Positions 10,397 to 21,834 of a stretch of DNA of 23,310 nt are shown here, in pieces. A program made the translations under genes and the position numbers. How positions within the stretch are numbered: position 1 is the stretch's first letter; each line of letters starts with the position of its first letter. This DNA is from a virus (Duplodnaviria > Heunggongvirae > Uroviricota > Caudoviricetes): IMG/VR virus record IMGVR_UViG_2531839433_000004, one strand, 5' to 3'. Under the pieces are notes generated by a model, which was given only the letters and a program-made list of their open reading frames with translations, was not told where the DNA came from and did no database searches.

Positions 10397-10981
10397 ATGA
10401 ACAAGAAATACACGTTGATCTAAGCGGATCCGCCCTGGACGTACGAGGATAAATGCAATTCTGGTAAGCGTGGCACCGGGCATAAATACTTGGTTATGAC
10501 GGTGCAGGATATCTGCTGGCTGCCAGTAAGGGAGCGGGTTGCAGAAAGCTGCCAGCTGGCGATGTGGTGGTTGCCAACTCAAACGTTCGAGGCGATGAAA
10601 GTCGTCGATGCCTGGGGATTTCGCCTGATCACAATGAAAGGTTTCACTTGGGATAAAACCTACCCGAAGCAAACTGACAAATCGGCGATGGGAATGGGAC
10701 ACCTGATCCGGGCGAACCGTGAAGATTGTCTTTTCGCGGTAAAGGGTAAGCGGGCACCACAGCAGGACGCCTCGATCATCCAGCACTACACCTCGCCGCG
10801 ACATGAGCACTCACGTAAACCAGACTGCGTGCGTGAAATGCTGGTTCGGTTGCTGGGTAATCTTCCACGTATTGAGCTCTTTGCGCGTAAATCCTCCCAC
10901 GGTTTCGACGTATGGGGAAACAAGTGTGATTCGCCAACCGTATCATTAAGCCCGGCCCGAGTTACTGATGTTTATTCTTAA
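10397..10981 (+). pseudogene. MT-A70-family DNA N6-adenine methyltransferase interrupted by an in-frame TAA at codon 9
   Basis: ATG AAC AAG AAA TAC ACG TTG ATC TAA GCG GAT CCG CCC TGG reads MNKKYTLI*ADPPW. The catalytic DPPW motif follows the stop in frame. The downstream frame continues ...AWGF...RANREDCLFAVKGKR...SPRHEHSRKPDCVREMLVRLLGNLPRIELFARKSSHGFDVWGNK. Confidence 0.7.
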
Positions 10982-11192: not shown

Positions 11193-12224
11193 ATGTCCTC
11201 GAATATTTTATCTGGTGAAAAAGTAATCAATAAAATTGCTGAAAAGTTGAGCGATTATAAATATCCTCCGGCTGAAGGTATGAACTCTGAACATGTCAGC
11301 AAATGGATTAAGCAATTTGCAGTGGAGGATAGACGATTTATCTTAGATGAAACGCTTTATCTACTTAATGCAGGTTACCTATCCGAAAGTCAATATCAAC
11401 GAAAAATAAAAGCCATTGCAAGAAGTGAAAAGAACGCGAAATTCTTCAGATATGCAGGTTTTTTAGATATTCAAAAAAAAGGTTCTAGTCAGAAGGAATT
11501 GCTTAAATCTCTTTATGAAACAGTAGGGATCAAATTTAACATCGTTACTGAATCATCAACTCAAGATGAAGTAAATAAATTTGATACATTTGTATATATT
11601 GATGATGTGTCGTTTTCAGGAGAAAAGGCCATCAAATCGATAAGTAATTTTGTTTTAAAATTTAATTTAAGAGATATTAAATTCAATGTATATTTTTTTT
11701 CATCTCATACGTTATCTGACTATAATATAAAAAGACGATTAGAATATATTTTTAAGGATAGAAACATTTTTGTACACGTGAAGAATGGTGGTATGCGTGA
11801 GGTTGAAAACCGAAAAAGTCGTTCTGCTCAATCAGGTGTTTTCTGGCCAAGGAAATATAGTGTAGATACTCCCGAGAAATTCGAGGAGTGTGAGCTTTAC
11901 AAAGGCGTATTCAGAGATGGATATGCCTCTTCTGATAGTTTTAGAAATGAAGCCTCAAGGGATCGTTTCGAATCTATCCTTACTAAAGTCGGCTTTAATA
12001 TCTTGCTGCACAGGAAAACCCCTAGTGAGGTGCTCAAACCTCTAGGTTTTTCTACTTTTGACGGTTTGGGTTTTGGGGGAACAACATTTACTTATCGAAA
12101 TTGCCCGAATAATGTGCCGCTGGCTTTTTGGTGGGGAGATTATGAACCAACAGGTGCTCCCGCATTGGACTGCTGGTATCCACTAATGAAGCGGAATGGG
12201 TATAATGAGTGGTATGAGCTATAG
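11193..12224 (+). CDS. Unrecognised 343-aa protein with a PRTase-like motif, in a low-GC insertion
   Basis: Long ORF in a distinctly A/T-rich block. RBS AAAAGGAA before the ATG. FVYIDDVSFSGEK (aa 133-145) resembles the PRPP-binding loop of type I phosphoribosyltransferases. Rest of the protein not recognised. Confidence 0.6.
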   Translation: MSSNILSGEKVINKIAEKLSDYKYPPAEGMNSEHVSKWIKQFAVEDRRFILDETLYLLNAGYLSESQYQRKIKAIARSEKNAKFFRYAGFLDIQKKGSSQKELLKSLYETVGIKFNIVTESSTQDEVNKFDTFVYIDDVSFSGEKAIKSISNFVLKFNLRDIKFNVYFFSSHTLSDYNIKRRLEYIFKDRNIFVHVKNGGMREVENRKSRSAQSGVFWPRKYSVDTPEKFEECELYKGVFRDGYASSDSFRNEASRDRFESILTKVGFNILLHRKTPSEVLKPLGFSTFDGLGFGGTTFTYRNCPNNVPLAFWWGDYEPTGAPALDCWYPLMKRNGYNEWYEL

Positions 12225-12825
12225 ATTATATCCGCTACAGAACACAGTTTCCTTCAGGAAAACCACCGAAAAATGGGGGGGGCTTTCCAACATGGCTAAA
12301 GGATATCCATTGTTAATCAATGGGTTGCCTATTCAATCAAGTGAAATCCTTTACCAAGCATGCCGATATCCAGACTATCCGGATATACAAAAGGCCATCA
12401 TTACTCAAGGAAACCCCTATGAAGCCAAGCAGACCGCAAGATCGTTTGAATCCAAAACTCGCGCAGGATGGGATAAGAATCGAGTTTCGATTATGAAGTG
12501 GTGTGTATGCGTAAAATTATGCCAGAACTGGGATACGTTCTTTGCGCTGTTAGACAGTACAGGCGACCATTTCATCGTGGAACACTCAGAGAAGGACCAA
12601 TTCTGGGGTGCCAGTAAAGACCCAGAAGGTAACTATTATGGTATGAACGTATTAGGGCGAATTCTCATGGACGTGAGAGGGGTTGCTAGGAAAAAGGGGG
12701 CTGATGGGTTTGCAACAATACCATCGCTATCTTTGGACAAATTTTTTCTCCTAGGCGAAAGAATTAAAGATGTAACATTTGTAGAGCCAACGCCTGGAGC
12801 AGGGCAAAGTTTATCCTTGTTTTAG
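12196..12825 (+). CDS. NADAR-domain protein (YbiA-like N-glycosidase / ADP-ribosyl-base hydrolase family)
   Basis: Recognisable NADAR pattern WGGLSNM, SSEILYQACRY, KTRAGWDKNRVSIMKWCVCVKLCQN, LLDSTGDHFIVEHSEKDQFWGAS, GMNVLGRILMDVR. Overlaps the upstream gene end; start could be the ATG at 12196, 12205 or 12214. Confidence 0.7.
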   Translation: MGIMSGMSYRLYPLQNTVSFRKTTEKWGGLSNMAKGYPLLINGLPIQSSEILYQACRYPDYPDIQKAIITQGNPYEAKQTARSFESKTRAGWDKNRVSIMKWCVCVKLCQNWDTFFALLDSTGDHFIVEHSEKDQFWGASKDPEGNYYGMNVLGRILMDVRGVARKKGADGFATIPSLSLDKFFLLGERIKDVTFVEPTPGAGQSLSLF

Positions 12826-13541: not shown

Positions 13542-13711
13542 TGGCTACACCGCTTATTCGTGTCATGAACGGACACATCTACAAAGTACCAAATCGTCGT
13601 AAGCGTAAACCTGAGCTGAAGCCATCCGAAATACCAACTCTGCTCGGATATACCGCCAGCCTGGTTGATAAAAAATGGTTGCGACTGGCAGCAAGGAGGA
13701 ATCATGGCTGA
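13541..13711 (+). CDS. ninE: NinE-like small basic protein
   Basis: 56-aa [56 protein letters not shown]. The basic motif and spacing resemble NinE. ATG overlaps the ninB stop. Confidence 0.45.
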
Positions 13712-14297
13712 TTTGAGAAAAGCAGCGCGTGGTCGGGAATGCCAGGTAAGAATCCCTGGCGTATGTAATGGCAATTCTGAAACGTCTGTACTGGCACATA
13801 TCCGGCTGACCCCACAAACAGATTTCACGCTCAATCTCACGACGAGTCATGAGACCTTTCCATTGCTTACCGCCAGCATATGTCCAGCGACGTAGCTGAT
13901 CACATGCGCCTTTGATATCGCCCTGGTTTATTTTGCGAAGAAGCGTCGATGTTCTGAAATTGCCAGCGCCCACGTTGTAAACGAACGAGTAAAGAGCGCC
14001 GCGCGTTGTTTCCGGTATATCAACTTTTATGTACGGGTTAATTTGTCTGGCGACCGTGGCAAGGTCTTTATTCAGGAGGGCTTTGCATTCTGCTTTGGTA
14101 TACGTTTTACCGAGCATGATGTCTTTTCCTGTATGCCCGTGACATACAGTCCATACACCAACAATATCTTTGTATGGTATGTAGCTGACACCTTCCAGAC
14201 CATCGTTACCACTTGGGCCAGTGATTAACACTGATGCTATAGCAATTGCTCCGCCACCAATAGCAGCAGCAACGGCTTTTCGTAATGATGGAGGCAT
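13563..14297 (-). CDS. R: SAR endolysin (phage 21 R / RrrD-like GH24 lysozyme); the ORF has lost its native stop and runs ~80 codons into antisense nin sequence
   Basis: The first 164 aa [44 protein letters not shown]...CLWGQ match R21/RrrD-type SAR lysozymes (recalled). Sequence after Q164 (13806..13808) is unrelated. Start overlaps the holin stop (ATGA). Confidence 0.85.
13704..13808 (+). pseudogene. ybcO-like nin-region gene truncated after ~35 codons at a rearrangement junction
   Basis: [35 protein letters not shown] matches the YbcO/DUF1364-type N-terminus (recalled). Downstream translation is antisense to the lysozyme gene. Confidence 0.45.
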
Positions 14298-14512
14298 TAT
14301 TCACCTCTCGCAGCCTTGCGCTTATCTTCTTTAATCTTGAAATAAAGGTTTGTCAGGTACGTCAGCAGGCCAAATACCAGGCTACCCAGCACACCTATTG
14401 CTGCCCACTGTGAGGGCGTGACTTTATCGAGCAGCTGTAAAAACCAGTAACCGGCACTACCTGCTGAGGTGCCATAGGCGACACCCGTTGTTAACTTATC
14501 CATGGATTTCAT
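14297..14512 (-). CDS. S: Class II pinholin (S21/EssD-like)
   Basis: [71 protein letters not shown] has two TMDs and a basic C-terminus; near-identical in pattern to S21. Dual-start MKSMDK motif present. The ORF extends upstream to 14557. Confidence 0.8.
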
Positions 14513-15099
14513 AACCCCACCTCGCAGACAAAGCGGGTGTAAATTGAGGGAATACAACGTATCGCAAAAAAGCAGAAACGTAACAGACTCGGAGTCAGTG
14601 AATAACTCAGGTATTGAGTTATCAGCTAATATCGAGACTCAGAAAATGGAAAAACCAGCTCGACGGCGGGTTTAAGCTGTGTGACGAAGTAACCACTCTT
14701 AACAGCATAACCAATTTTTTACGTACGTAAACCACTGAATGATATTTATGAGAATGCTACCGAGTGTTCAAAACACCACCACAAATACATAAGAAAACCT
14801 CAACAAATAACCAATAAATAATTTCAGACGTTATTTTTAGTTGATTTAAATTAAACTGCCGAATTATAGAACCTCCATAAATAACAACCATTAATATAAA
14901 TTAGCTAATAGGTTTATTTTTGTTCAAATAAGAGCCATAAATAGGTTTCGATAGAAAAAGTTCAGATAAAAATAGAGATCTACTTCACAAATTAAATGAG
15001 AAACTAAAACTTACATCTTGAAATAATCACATTGATTAGATGAATATTTATCGCGCAGTGACATCATTTTTTAATAATAGTTCAAAAAAAGGGCTCACG

Positions 15100-16182
15100 A
15101 TGAAAAAATTAACAGTGGCAATTTCTGCTGTAGCTGCATCAGTACTGATGGCGATGTCTGCTCAGGCAGCTGAAATTTATAATAAAGACAGTAACAAGCT
15201 GGATCTATATGGGAAAGTTAATGCCAAGCACTACTTCTCCTCTAATGATGCAGATGATGGTGATACTACTTATGCCCGTCTTGGCTTCAAAGGTGAAACC
15301 CAAATCAACGATCAACTGACTGGTTTCGGTCAGTGGGAATATGAATTCAAAGGCAACCGCGCTGAATCTCAAGGCTCCTCCAAAGACAAAACCCGTCTTG
15401 CATTTGCAGGCCTGAAATTCGGGGACTACGGCTCAATCGATTACGGCCGTAACTACGGTGTAGCATATGACATCGGTGCGTGGACTGACGTTCTGCCAGA
15501 ATTCGGTGGCGATACCTGGACCCAAACAGATGTGTTCATGACTGGTCGCACCACTGGTGTTGCAACTTATCGTAACAACGACTTCTTTGGTCTGGTTGAT
15601 GGTCTGAACTTTGCTGCTCAGTATCAGGGTAAAAATGACCGCACTGACGTAACTGAAGCTAATGGTGATGGTTTCGGTTTCTCCACTACTTATGAGTATG
15701 AAGGATTCGGTGTAGGTGCAACCTATGCTAAATCTGACCGCACTAATAATCAGGTTATCTACGGTAACAACAGCCTGAATGCATCTGGTCAAAATGCTGA
15801 AGTATGGGCAGCTGGTCTGAAATATGATGCGAACAACATCTATCTGGCTACCACCTATTCTGAAACCCAGAACATGACTGTTTTTGGTAATAACCATATT
15901 GCCAACAAAGCACAAAACTTCGAAGTAGTTGCACAATATCAGTTCGACTTCGGTCTGCGTCCGTCCGTTGCTTACCTGCAATCTAAAGGAAAAGACTTGG
16001 GTGCGTGGGGTGATCAGGACCTGGTTGAATATATTGATGTAGGTGCAACCTATTACTTCAACAAAAATATGTCCACTTTTGTTGATTACAAAATCAACCT
16101 GATTGATAAGAGCGATTTCACGAAAGCATCTGGCGTTGCTACCGATGATATCGTTGCTGTAGGTATGGTTTACCAGTTCTAA
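15100..16182 (+). CDS. Outer-membrane general porin of the OmpC/OmpF/NmpC(Lc) family, prophage-encoded
   Basis: Signal peptide [30 protein letters not shown]. Beta-barrel porin hallmarks and C-terminal ...VGMVYQF. AAGGG RBS. The ORF track starts 60 nt upstream, but MKKL is the likely start. Confidence 0.85.
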
Positions 16183-16308
16183 TTTGATTACTAAAAGATA
16201 TGTTGCGGGAGGCTTTGCCTCCCCAACATATAAGTGGCTCCCTCAAGCCACTTCCTTTAGGAGCACAACCTTGCTTCTAACTATATAAACCTTCTGTTAT
16301 ATATTACC

Positions 16309-16340
16309 CTTTATTTTTGGGGGCGTTGCAACGCCCCATT
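16309..16340 (+). terminator. Intrinsic terminator downstream of the porin gene
   Basis: GGGGGCGTTGCAACGCCCC hairpin followed by ATTTTTAATAATTTTT. Confidence 0.55.
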
Positions 16341-16370
16341 TTTAATAATTTTTAGTAAACAATTGGCATA

Positions 16371-16754
16371 TTAATTAGAGTTATTAACAACGATATCCAT
16401 CTCTAACCGGATATCTAATGCCATTAACATCCCTTCAATTATGCCCTCAGCCTTCTGTAACCTTTTCCCGATATAACCATCAGAGCAGCAATGCTTACCT
16501 GCCAGTGACATGAATGTCATACCGACTACATAATAATCTACTAATAAATCGTGCAAATCGCTGCTGTTCTTTTTCAGACGGGCCATGCACCCGCAAATAA
16601 TCATCGCGTCATCGTCACAACATTGCGGGCGAGATTTTACTTTTGAAGTAATTAATCCCTTAAAACCGGCGGCAATGGACGACCAGGTCACATCTTCATG
16701 ATTATTAGCCGCCCACGCTCCCCAACGCTCAAGAACCATCTGAATATCACGCAT
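16371..16754 (-). CDS. Q: Late-gene antiterminator Q (phage 82/QuuD type)
   Basis: [62 protein letters not shown]... matches the DLP12 QuuD-type Q as recalled. Cys-rich zinc-binding segment present. Confidence 0.8.
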
Positions 16755-16820
16755 CAACTTACTCCACAAAAATCAGACCAGAACGCCAATTACAAGCAAA
16801 AATCAACAAAACAGTATTAG

Positions 16821-17480
16821 TTGATTGTTATCTCTGACTTCATACTCCTGCTCCTGTCAGGGTTTTGGCGTAATTCTTCAGTATTCGGTAATCGGTCAAA
16901 ACAGAACCGGGGAAACGATATAAGCGCAGATGCCCCCAGCGGTGGCGAAGAAGTTCTGCCATATAAAACTCAAACATCATTCATTCCCCATTTCGGTGAT
17001 GGTCAGTTCCAGCCTCCCACCTTTGGTATTGCACCGCCAGATATTCCGGTAGGCTTCGTGGCTGTTTTCAACAGTGATGAGGCATCGTGGCATCTCGTTG
17101 AAGATCATCGGGGAAAAACCGTCTATGACGTGGCTTCCGGCGACTCGTTATTTATTTCTGAACTCGGACCTCTACCGGAAAATATCACCTGGTTATGCCC
17201 GGAAGGGGAGTTTCAGAAGTGGAACGGCACAGCCTGGGTGAAGGATACGGAAGCAGAAAAACTGTTCCGGATCCGGGAGGCGGAAGAAACAAAAAACAGC
17301 CTGATGCAGGTAGCCAGTGAGCATATTGAGCCGCTTCAGGATGCTGCAGATCTGGAAATCGCAACGGAGGAAGAAACCTCGTTGCTTGAAGCCTGGAAGA
17401 AGTATCGGGTGTTGCTGAATCGTGTTGATACATCAACTGCACCTGATATTGAGTGGCCCGCAATCCCTGTTATGGAATAA
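16821..17480 (+). pseudogene. Tail fibre assembly (Tfa) protein homologue, probably a 5'-altered remnant with no ATG start
   Basis: C-terminal ~150 aa ...[52 protein letters not shown]...[11 protein letters not shown] match the lambdoid Tfa family. The N-terminal 60 aa are unrelated and the frame opens with TTG. Confidence 0.6.
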
Positions 17481-17840: not shown

Positions 17841-19796
17841 GTGGATACAGCAGAACATGATGGCAAGTTTGCTTGGGCTAGTTTTTATGAGGCTTTTGCC
17901 AACGCGTTACTGACTTGGCGAAATCGTAGAGATGAATTAGTCAAAGGTATTCATCTAATTGCCTCGGGTGTGGAAGGAATGTCCCATCTGCAGGACAAAT
18001 CTATTATGGGAGAGATCTTTCCCTTAAAAGACATTTGTCCGTTTACTACTATGGGCTTGTTCAATCGTAACTTGACCGACAGCAATCGCAAAATTATTGC
18101 TGCCAAGCTAGCGAATTTGTTGGGCGTGAACGAACCGATTCCTGACTCCTTTGCCGGAATCCCTCTGTTGAATAACCAAAAATCTTGGTTCTTTGGTTAT
18201 GAAAAGTCACGCGACCCTAATGACATTGAATGCTTGTGGGAAATGTTCTCACAGGCAATGACCTTTGCGGATAACCAGAATACTAACTCTGCAGACTTCA
18301 CTGCCGCATATGACATCGCTTCTACAGTAATGAATGTCGGTTGGAATCTCACCATGGGGTTGTACTGGACCCGTCCTTGGTTCTACCCCACTTTAGATAG
18401 CCAGTCGCAGTATTACATTCAGACAGTGTTAAACATTAAGATCATTAAAAACGGGGCAAAAGGTCGCTGTAGTGGACAAAGTTACCTGAGTCTTATGCGG
18501 GCGCTGAACGAGGTCTTTACCCAACCAAACTATCCGGTTCATTCTTTCCCAGAACTTTCCTTATCAGCGTGGAATACAGATCTTAGCCAGTCTAAAGATG
18601 AGGTGGCAAATAGAACGTGGAAAGCCTCTTTACTGAATAAAATTAAGGCGTTATGCCTGAAAAAAAATGGCCCTTATTTCACTGCTTCGGAGTTGGAAGA
18701 AAACTACTTGGACGTTTTCAAGGTAGAGCATCCTGAGAGCAAAACTGTTACAAGCTCAATCTACTTTTATCTACAGAAACTATGCAATGATGATGAGTTA
18801 AAGTCCCTCGAGTCCGGAAATTATGAATACCTGAATTTTGAGAAAAACGAATCCCAGACGATAACTGAGGAAACTGTCGAAGAGAGTGCGCTGTCGCCAA
18901 AACTCACCCACGTTCCTTATGATATCAGTCATCTGGTGCAGGATGGCTGTTTCTTGGAAGAGGCTAAGATCCAACTCACACTTCAGCGCCTGATCGACAA
19001 GAAAAACCTGATATTACAAGGACCACCCGGAACTGGAAAAACTTGGTTAGCGCGACGTCTGGCGTACTGCTTGATGGGAGAAAAAGCACCTGAGCGTATT
19101 AGCGCGGTGCAATTTCACCCGAACCTCTCTTACGAAGACTTTATTCGCGGCTGGCGTCCAGGTAAAGAAGGGCAATTGACGCTAATTGATGGACCTTTTG
19201 TAAATGCAATCAAAACTGCAGTCAATAATCCTACCTCGAAATATGTGGTGATAATTGAAGAGATTAATCGTGGCAATCCGGCGCAAATCTTCGGTGAAAC
19301 ACTCACGTTGATGGAAGCAGATAAACGCACGCCGACTGAGGCATTATCTCTTTCCTATCCTAAAAATGCTGATGAAAAAATATACATTCCTGAGAATCTA
19401 TATATCATCGGTACGATGAATATTGCAGACCGCTCACTCGCACTACTTGACCTAGCGCTGCGCCGTCGTTTCGCGTTTATCGATCTAAAGCCAGCTTTTA
19501 ATGACGCGTGGAGAAACTGGGTAAATTATAATTACGCAATTGATTTTGACATGTTAGCATTCATCAAATCTCGACTGACGGTATTAAACGATATGCTGGC
19601 AAAAGATGTTACCTTAGGACCACAGTTTTGTATCGGTCACAGCTATGTCACCCCAGCTATCGGCCAAAAAATCAACGATGCCCAGGCTTGGTATGAACAA
19701 GTCGTTGATACAGAGATCTGCCCTTTGCTCGCCGAATATTGGTTCGATGCTCCAAATAAAGTCGATGAAGCCAGAAAAGTGTTATTAGCAAAATGA
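17841..19796 (+). CDS. mcrB: McrB-like AAA+ GTPase with a ~390-aa unrecognised N-terminal domain
   Basis: C-terminal half carries Walker A LILQGPPGTGKTW, VVIIEEINRGNPAQIFGE, and IIGTMNIADRSLALLDLALRRRFAFIDL, as in E. coli McrB. GTG start at 17841 with GGAG 5 nt upstream; the ORF track opens at a TTG at 17814. Confidence 0.85.
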   Translation: MDTAEHDGKFAWASFYEAFANALLTWRNRRDELVKGIHLIASGVEGMSHLQDKSIMGEIFPLKDICPFTTMGLFNRNLTDSNRKIIAAKLANLLGVNEPIPDSFAGIPLLNNQKSWFFGYEKSRDPNDIECLWEMFSQAMTFADNQNTNSADFTAAYDIASTVMNVGWNLTMGLYWTRPWFYPTLDSQSQYYIQTVLNIKIIKNGAKGRCSGQSYLSLMRALNEVFTQPNYPVHSFPELSLSAWNTDLSQSKDEVANRTWKASLLNKIKALCLKKNGPYFTASELEENYLDVFKVEHPESKTVTSSIYFYLQKLCNDDELKSLESGNYEYLNFEKNESQTITEETVEESALSPKLTHVPYDISHLVQDGCFLEEAKIQLTLQRLIDKKNLILQGPPGTGKTWLARRLAYCLMGEKAPERISAVQFHPNLSYEDFIRGWRPGKEGQLTLIDGPFVNAIKTAVNNPTSKYVVIIEEINRGNPAQIFGETLTLMEADKRTPTEALSLSYPKNADEKIYIPENLYIIGTMNIADRSLALLDLALRRRFAFIDLKPAFNDAWRNWVNYNYAIDFDMLAFIKSRLTVLNDMLAKDVTLGPQFCIGHSYVTPAIGQKINDAQAWYEQVVDTEICPLLAEYWFDAPNKVDEARKVLLAK

Positions 19797-20914
19797 CGAC
19801 AATAACCGGGAGTGAGCAACATACAGCATCACGTATTCCCATGCGAAATATCTGGATGCTGATGCTGTACGCTTCAGATCTGTTTCGCCAGTTAGGGCGC
19901 AATCAGATCGCAGTAGAAGATAACCCAGCAGAAATCCCCGACCTGGTGGCGACAATCCTCCTTCATGAGATTACGCTGCGCCGACGTCGCAATTTAAATA
20001 TGGGATACCAAACTTGTCATGCGGCCCTGAACCGGGTGAGAGGGCGCATTGACATACTGTATACTGCCAGTCATCAACTGCTGGAACGGGGACAGGTTGC
20101 CTGCCATTTTCAAGACATAACCCTCAACACCCCCCGAAATCGCTATGTTCGCTGTGCGTTAGAACGTCTGGCCTCAATCATAGTGAAACCGTCTTTGGCG
20201 GCAGATTGCCATTTTATGGCAATATCACTTCGCCGTGAGGGGATAAATGGAGGATATCCTGCCCCCCACGAATTACCCTCAGTGTGGCGTTTTGGACGCC
20301 ATGATGCCGCAGATAAACCGATGGTCGATGCCGCACGATTAGCTTTTGAACTGCTGATGCCGACCGAAGATCAAGGCCAATATCTTTTACCTGCGCCCTC
20401 AAATAACCTTTACTGGATGAGAAGACTATTTGAAAAAGGTATCGCTGGCTTATATCGTGTACACCTTGACAAAACAACTTGGCAGGTCTCTGCAGGGAAA
20501 GAGCTGAAATGGGCGTTGAGCGATCAAAGTGCAGGTAGTGCAGAGATTTTCCCGACAATGAAGTCAGACATTATTCTGGAACACAAGACTGCCCAGCGGC
20601 GTATTATTATCGATACCAAATTTAATTCGATTCTGACAAAGGGTTGGCATCGGGAGCAATCACTACGTAATGGCTATATTTATCAGCTATATACCTACCT
20701 TAGAACACAGGAGAACAAGACGGATCCGCTTTCGCTCAATGCCGCTGGTCTTCTACTTCATCCAGCTGTTGGCTATATGCTTAATGAGTATGTTGTCACT
20801 CAGGGACATAAGATCCATTTTGCTACAGTAGATATGACGGTAGATGCTAAAGCAATTAAAAAACAATTGCTGGCAATAGCCCATGATTGTGCAGGAGTCG
20901 CGGTTGATGACTAA
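19793..20914 (+). CDS. mcrC: McrC-like PD-(D/E)xK nuclease subunit
   Basis: Start overlaps the mcrB-like stop (ATGA, translational coupling). The segment RRIIIDTKFNSIL...YIYQLYTYL is consistent with the McrC nuclease core. Confidence 0.8.
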   Translation: MTTITGSEQHTASRIPMRNIWMLMLYASDLFRQLGRNQIAVEDNPAEIPDLVATILLHEITLRRRRNLNMGYQTCHAALNRVRGRIDILYTASHQLLERGQVACHFQDITLNTPRNRYVRCALERLASIIVKPSLAADCHFMAISLRREGINGGYPAPHELPSVWRFGRHDAADKPMVDAARLAFELLMPTEDQGQYLLPAPSNNLYWMRRLFEKGIAGLYRVHLDKTTWQVSAGKELKWALSDQSAGSAEIFPTMKSDIILEHKTAQRRIIIDTKFNSILTKGWHREQSLRNGYIYQLYTYLRTQENKTDPLSLNAAGLLLHPAVGYMLNEYVVTQGHKIHFATVDMTVDAKAIKKQLLAIAHDCAGVAVDD

Positions 20915-21614: not shown

Positions 21615-21779
21615 CTGCTGCGCCATATGGGTTGGACTGAAGCGGCTGACCTGATTGTTAAAGGTATGGAAGGCGCAATCAATGCCAAGACCGTAACTTA
21701 TGACTTCGAACGTCTGATGGAAGGCGCTAAGCTGCTGAAATGTTCAGAGTTTGGTGAAGCGATCATCGAAAACATGTAA
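21615..21779 (+). pseudogene. icdC: 165-bp 3' fragment of icd (isocitrate dehydrogenase), icdC-like, marking the prophage/host junction
   Basis: Translates to [54 protein letters not shown], the ICD C-terminus. Upstream sequence lacks icd homology. Confidence 0.85.
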
Positions 21780-21802
21780 TCTCTCCATGTGTTAAATATT
21801 GA

Positions 21803-21834
21803 AACGGGCGTATAACACGCCCGTTGTTTTATTT
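21803..21834 (+). terminator. icd intrinsic terminator
   Basis: AACGGGCGT-ataac-ACGCCCGTT followed by GTTTTATTT. Confidence 0.6.

Follow-up and report, generated by a model that had tools for sequence, protein, structure and literature searches.

An intact nmpC/lc-type porin gene with an ipeX-like 3' untranslated region in a rearranged lambdoid prophage at icd of Escherichia coli

The closest described relatives of the gene reported here are two phage-borne porin genes, nmpC of the DLP12 prophage in Escherichia coli K-12 and lc of phage PA-2. In K-12, DLP12 carries quuD, nmpC on the opposite strand, essD and rrrD in that order, and nmpC there is interrupted by IS5B following codon 346. In 2006 Castillo-Keller reportedly placed ipeX downstream of the nmpC stop codon and ahead of its terminator, and is said to have found that the PA-2 lc transcript with the ipeX sequence lowers OmpC. 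Lc of PA-2, also termed 'protein 2', is a phage-borne porin expressed in the lysogen, the transcript of which carries ipeX and lowers OmpC (PMC12197685, PMC8065619). IpeX is an RNA of 167 nt that originates from the porin transcript (PMC12197685) and represses both ompC and ompF (PMC5069750, PMC12197685), and the link between this RNA and the old PA-2 observation has been drawn in PMC8065619. Intact nmpC/ompD genes were noted earlier in pathogenic E. coli, such as EAEC 042, where the divergence of the encoded porin was noted to exceed that of the core porins (PMC2808357). With respect to expression, both nmpC copies of strain CFT073 were strongly up at 37 °C, in RNA as well as in protein (PMC12890032), and nmpC of the Perceval prophage in LF82 stood 10-fold over the local background (PMC9928086). 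In strain AW1.7, NmpC is credited with a contribution to heat resistance (Ruan 2011, as cited in PMC4563881 and PMC12890032), and nmpC of E. coli B is termed 'quiescent' in the title of Prilipov 1998 (as cited in PMC5745476).

The window, by which we mean the whole stretch of 23,310 nucleotides filed as IMG/VR virus record IMGVR_UViG_2531839433_000004, is a lambdoid prophage integrated at icd, with the duplicated 3' end of icd at 21616..21832 and iraM beyond it. It is 99.996% identical to the record of E. coli strain 504239, isolated from human stool in India, the difference being one 1-bp indel over 23.3 kb, and the RefSeq porin of that strain, WP_000737275.1, has coordinates that match the gene under study (Table 1). 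The window porin equals DLP12 nmpC in position and orientation between quuD and essD, bearing out the gene order that had been proposed in an earlier sequence-only reading of this DNA. It differs from the K-12 gene in being whole, in being five residues shorter, with gaps near residues 183 and 221, and in lying at icd, not in DLP12, within a block that is inverted. The likeness to PA-2 lc comes via source names, the identical protein being named 'outer membrane porin protein LC' or 'porin OmpD' in the databases; PA-2, however, is a viable phage, whereas the window element cannot make virions. Chromosomal OmpD, which is the major porin in Salmonella, Citrobacter and Enterobacter, has about 78-80% protein identity and a short upstream block in common with the window porin, but it occupies a conserved chromosomal locus, starts with another signal peptide (MKLKLVAVAV...) and is found without the ipeX-type 3' UTR context. 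As cargo between Q/pR' and S, the gene also resembles stx of the Stx phages, with which the flanking Q and lysis DNA is shared. In contrast to stx, which runs in the direction of the late operon and is expressed upon induction (PMC8065619), the window porin lies antisense to that operon and would behave as a lysogen-expressed gene.

The reading frame of the porin runs through its 360 codons without frameshift and without insertion, as evidenced by the ORF list and the translation, and no IS was found in it; the earlier statement that this copy is intact, unlike nmpC of K-12, therefore holds. In a profile search, Pfam Porin_1 (PF00267) was matched over its full length (1-337/337, E = 3e-153), and the solved structures of OmpK37, OmpC, OmpK36 and PhoE match the entire mature chain with E <= 1e-134. 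Compared with fragment 1 of K-12 NmpC, the protein shows 90% identity over 346 residues and is identical through residue 148. The uninterrupted frame, the full-length domain and this identity together uphold the assignment to a complete porin of the OmpC/NmpC/Lc type. The loop-3 motif PEFGG occupies residues 133-137, within LPEFGGD (132-138), and the chain ends in ...VYQF, its terminal Phe being the aromatic residue for BAM recognition; both PEFGG and the C-terminal YQF are invariant across 30 homologues. By similarity to the solved porins, the fold is likely to be of the 16-stranded beta-barrel trimer type; an AlphaFold2 model built from a 30-sequence alignment was discarded at a pLDDT of 35. 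At the N-terminus, MKK is followed by a hydrophobic core, and residue 24 (AEIYNKD...) aligns to residue 1 of the mature OmpC, OmpK36 and PhoE chains in the solved structures, so that residues 1-23 are predicted to form a standard Sec signal peptide, in agreement with the earlier reading. The start at 15100 is favoured because of an AGGG Shine-Dalgarno sequence 6 nt upstream and because of this classical signal peptide. An alternative in-frame ATG at 15040, which would give 380 aa, is not supported, as it has no ribosome-binding site and the extension is absent from relatives.

The gene is encoded on the strand opposite to quuD, essD and rrrD, with its 5' end toward the holin and its 3' end toward the end of Q. 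The earlier description of the porin as lying divergently between Q and the holin is correct for the holin only, since porin and Q are convergent. A terminator of its own, which had likewise been proposed, is present, although it does not follow the stop codon immediately: it lies 138 nt past the stop codon, and the T-run ends 161 nt downstream of that codon.

Table 1 Features of the porin locus and its neighbours in the window
Feature	Coordinates	Strand	Description and evidence
3.2-kb inverted block rrrD'-essD-porin-quuD-ylcG-rusA'	13808..17028		Colinear match limits; FREC5 relative; junction sequences
rrrD, lysozyme	13808..14297	-	Lacks last codon and stop; Pfam Phage_lysozyme; junction alignment; translation
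essD, class II (phage 21-type) holin	14297..14512	-	Divergent from porin; Pfam Phage_holin_2_1, E = 2e-35; RefSeq annotation
Holin-porin intergenic region	14513..15099	+	AT-rich (33% GC), with putative porin promoter and 5' UTR; K-12 comparison
nmpC/lc/ompD-type general porin gene	15100..16182 (stop codon included)	+	360 aa, intact; Pfam, NCBIfam, PHROG, K-12 NmpC identity
Predicted Sec signal peptide	15100..15168	+	23 residues, AQA/AE cleavage site; read from sequence; porin alignment
Structured porin 3' UTR matching ipeX	16183..16343	+	Four hairpins and terminator; fold energy; K-12 identity; conservation
Intrinsic terminator of porin transcript	16320..16343	+	GGGGCGTTGCAACGCCCC then T-run ATTTTTAATA; stem 7 pairs (6 G-C), loop 4
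quuD, late antiterminator Q	16371..16754	-	Intact, convergent with porin; Pfam Phage_antitermQ, E = 7e-53; RefSeq annotation

The 3' UTR of the porin is highly structured, with a minimum free energy of -62.9 kcal/mol (z = -8.1), and between the stop codon and quuD the sequence is ~96% identical to that of K-12 DLP12. It was found in the matching arrangement in all 160 of the 160 viral contigs that carry the 360- or the 365-aa allele, with Q next to it in 159 of them, and it is almost invariant among 221 related loci. In one divergent lineage the hairpins are kept via five compensatory pairs, and several single changes lead to G-U pairs, which work on the + (porin-sense) strand only. A scan with Rfam at the gathering thresholds gave no match in the porin 3' UTR, the matches in the window being IS009 in the tail-fibre-assembly gene tfa and the ALIL pseudoknot in an IS element. 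Judged from its size and its ~96% identity to K-12, and partly from the reported placement of ipeX, the 3' UTR probably corresponds to the ipeX element.

Upstream of the gene, the 587-bp intergenic region is 95% identical to that of K-12, of which the final 100 bp are identical, and contains a block, AAACTTAnnTnTTGAA, that is common to the upstream regions of chromosomal ompD genes. No site was found upstream of the porin in a sigma-70 consensus scan, and for this reason the promoter positions are given as candidates. A putative promoter may consist of a -35 element TTGAAA (15018-15023) and a -10 element TGAATA (15041-15046); alternatively, an extended -10 element TGaAATAAT (15019-15027) may serve this role. 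A CRP-like site at 14974-14989 with 2 mismatches was set aside as being no more than expected by chance, with 12 such sites counted in the window vs 11.8 expected.

Comparison of the 360-aa allele with the common 365-aa K-12-type allele revealed 97-100% identity for essD, for Q and the 3' UTR, and for the proximal promoter together with the initial third of the coding sequence, whereas the identity falls to 62-90% over the 3' two-thirds of the coding sequence (15496..16182, compared with locus L237). The synonymous divergence of the latter part is high (dS about 0.9, with dN/dS about 0.09), compared to codons 1-132 (dS 0.15, dN 0). This pattern indicates that the 3' two-thirds probably represent a cassette that diverged long ago, entered a young and conserved module by recombination, and is held under purifying selection. 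Indels and most replacements fall at residues ~181-188, 216-232, 262-266, 300-303 and 335-347, where indels occur in porin homologues too, and we infer that these variable regions may be surface loops. A third allele, of 370 aa (locus L084, 2501..3613), shares the signal peptide and adjoins genes for SSB and a lysozyme in another phage context; no Q, no essD and no ipeX-type 3' UTR were found at that locus. A scan with allele P0116 returned K-12-type alleles only.

The arrangement is widespread. The Q-porin-holin stretch is covered to at least 80% in 2394 of the 5426 complete E. coli genomes (about 44%) and also occurs in 36 phage records, in which the porin is annotated as OmpD, NmpC or OmpC. 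The exact porin protein of the window is present on at least 1000 public contigs, and its 90%-identity cluster has 2741 members. Besides the IS5 insertion of K-12, an interruption of the Q-porin-holin module by the IS66-like element ISCro1 was observed in strain E7476 (H69, NZ_CP035817.1 3578261-3584192).

The porin had been described as prophage-borne, and it does lie inside the prophage at icd, but that prophage is a defective and rearranged remnant. The integrase gene (1..2456, -) is split by an IS3-family element, the frameshift signal of which matches the Rfam ALIL pseudoknot at 1311..1427, and the MT-A70 family methyltransferase gene at 10397..10981 (+) has an internal stop, this pseudogene being present in the intact relative in strain FREC5 as well. 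According to the annotation, the prophage has no terminase, packaging, head or tail genes, and tfa is truncated. The early region is mostly intact, comprising exo, bet, gam, kil, the repressor gene, a cro-like gene, ydaT, O and P. With its integrase split, the virion genes lacking and the lysis block inverted, the element was judged unable to excise and form virions.

The block that holds the porin is inverted with respect to the early region and carries the final 52 bp of rusA. At its left junction, a 4-bp GCTG microhomology is present (13804-13807), the block being joined to ybcO after about 100 nt, and the end of rrrD is lost there, giving rise to a 244-aa fusion ORF (13563..14297, -) that runs into antisense ybcO/ninE. 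The right junction (17028/17029) joins the block to a 5'-truncated tail-fibre-assembly gene. The block is joined at these ends through illegitimate recombination. Strain FREC5 harbours an un-rearranged, full-length intact prophage with the same gene order, encoding the identical porin protein, and the rearranged arrangement was found in only 6 of the 5426 complete E. coli genomes; we regard the inversion as a minor peculiarity of this lineage. Since Q is without its upstream operon after the inversion, Q-dependent antisense transcription over the porin would be unlikely, and the porin, now co-directional with the early rightward operon, would be sense-oriented for any read-through from pR. One could speculate that this ETEC-lineage inversion rewired the porin-ipeX unit, such that SOS derepression could boost a switch from OmpC/OmpF to NmpC without lysis, and that the survival of the block might reflect selection. 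The rewired block does survive in a prophage that has lost >20 kb of virion genes, yet we hold this scenario to be very improbable.

Several other genes of the window deserve mention in their own right. The ORF at 16920..17480 (+), annotated as 'tail fiber assembly protein', is a chimera, in which the tfa homology begins at 17029 and about 45 N-terminal codons are absent; its start lies in antisense ylcG/rusA DNA, and the Rfam IS009 match falls inside it at 17239..17437. In the nin region, a low-GC (31-32%) pair at 11193..12825 (+), also present in the FREC5 relative, encodes a phosphoribosyltransferase-like protein and a NADAR-family protein, with weak PADLOC matches to PRTase_III-A (E = 7.5e-11) and PDC-M42C (E = 1.5e-8); the pair may be anti-phage cargo. 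At the right end of the prophage, adjoining attR, genes for a McrB-like AAA ATPase and McrC (17841..20914, +) constitute a prophage-borne modification-dependent restriction system. The e14 element of K-12 carries mcrA at the equivalent position.

From the gene, its family, its context and its structured 3' UTR, we consider it very probable that the window porin represents the lambdoid-phage 'moron' nmpC/lc in the form of an intact allele, a self-contained transcription unit that occupies the interval from Q to the lysis genes and is read against the late operon. In the window strain, a promoter of its own in the AT-rich region on the holin side would give rise to an mRNA of about 1.3 kb. The porin would be exported via Sec, with the signal peptide cleaved after AQA23, and, once in the outer membrane, would assemble into a trimer of 16-stranded barrels, a general diffusion porin like OmpC, PhoE and OmpD. 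The 161-nt hairpin-rich 3' UTR would act as ipeX, which lowers OmpC and OmpF post-transcriptionally in DLP12 and PA-2. Expression of porin and ipeX together would swap host porins for the phage-type porin, by which permeability and the surface receptor set may be altered, an effect that had been supposed from the sequence. Such a role in altering porin composition fits the literature on the NmpC/Lc family.

The name 'porin OmpC', under which RefSeq holds the protein, could suggest that a chromosomal gene of the host is at hand, be it core ompC or some other porin, rather than a phage gene. The NCBIfam porin OmpC subfamily model does score above its cut-off (518 bits vs 484), but this model is broad, and the misleading name arises because it alone passes, the NCBIfam PhoE and OmpF equivalog models scoring under their cut-offs. 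Its prophage setting, with Q and the holin on either side, refutes this reading, and PHROG 410 matches the protein end to end (1-360/360). The nearest database relatives are the NmpC/Lc alleles of E. coli (90-92% identity), and lower values were obtained for E. fergusonii porins (86-89%) and for OmpD (about 80%; about 78-82% in Citrobacter/Salmonella). Furthermore, the ompD-like gene of Salmonella, Citrobacter, Enterobacter and their relatives resides at a shared chromosomal locus with mutually syntenic flanks and without phage genes, and is hence flanked differently, whereas in E. coli and E. albertii the ompD-like gene adjoins Q. The phage gene is thus a branch that was mobilised from within the ompD lineage of enterobacteria, and we give a host core porin practically no credence.

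More serious is the possibility that the gene is intact but silent, a quiescent and functionless passenger of a decaying prophage which decay has not yet reached. The split integrase, the stop in the methyltransferase gene, the loss of the virion genes and of the lysozyme stop codon would all be in keeping with such a passenger, as would the lack of a consensus promoter in the sigma-70 scan and the term 'quiescent' applied to nmpC of E. coli B by Prilipov 1998 (as cited in PMC5745476). Against this, the exact protein is kept on at least 1000 contigs, dN/dS between the porin alleles is about 0.1, conservation is seen in the promoter-proximal 100 bp as well as in the 3' UTR, and expression of close homologues is known from CFT073 and LF82 (PMC12890032, PMC9928086); a silent gene thus appears possible but doubtful. 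It could also be argued that the main selected product is the IpeX 3' UTR RNA, for instance to block OmpC-dependent phages, with the porin ORF mostly a carrier. The two common alleles share 97% identity in the 3' UTR vs 89% in the porin coding sequence, compensatory changes keep the UTR hairpins, and the repression of OmpC and OmpF by IpeX is documented (PMC5069750, PMC12197685). However, Q and essD are conserved to an equal degree, and the contrast between UTR and coding sequence is for that reason ascribed to the divergent porin cassette; a special constraint on the 3' UTR RNA was rejected on the strength of the equally conserved Q and essD and of the old recombined cassette. Given also that purifying selection acts on the porin (dN/dS 0.1), and that the 370-aa phage porin allele exists without the porin 3' UTR, a primary role of the RNA seems quite unlikely to us. 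The reading as an intact, self-contained nmpC/lc unit is accordingly preferred to each of these alternatives.

The nmpC/lc porin unit is an already known, textbook and very common element, and its occurrence here is real but ordinary. The porin matters little beyond annotation, where the RefSeq label 'porin OmpC' hides a phage-borne NmpC/Lc porin with an IpeX-type 3' UTR. In these ETEC isolates, the uptake of antibiotics, the sensitivity to phages and the surface antigenicity could be altered by an additional expressed porin acting alongside the repression of OmpC and OmpF, effects that have all been described for the NmpC/Lc family since the 1970s to 2000s.
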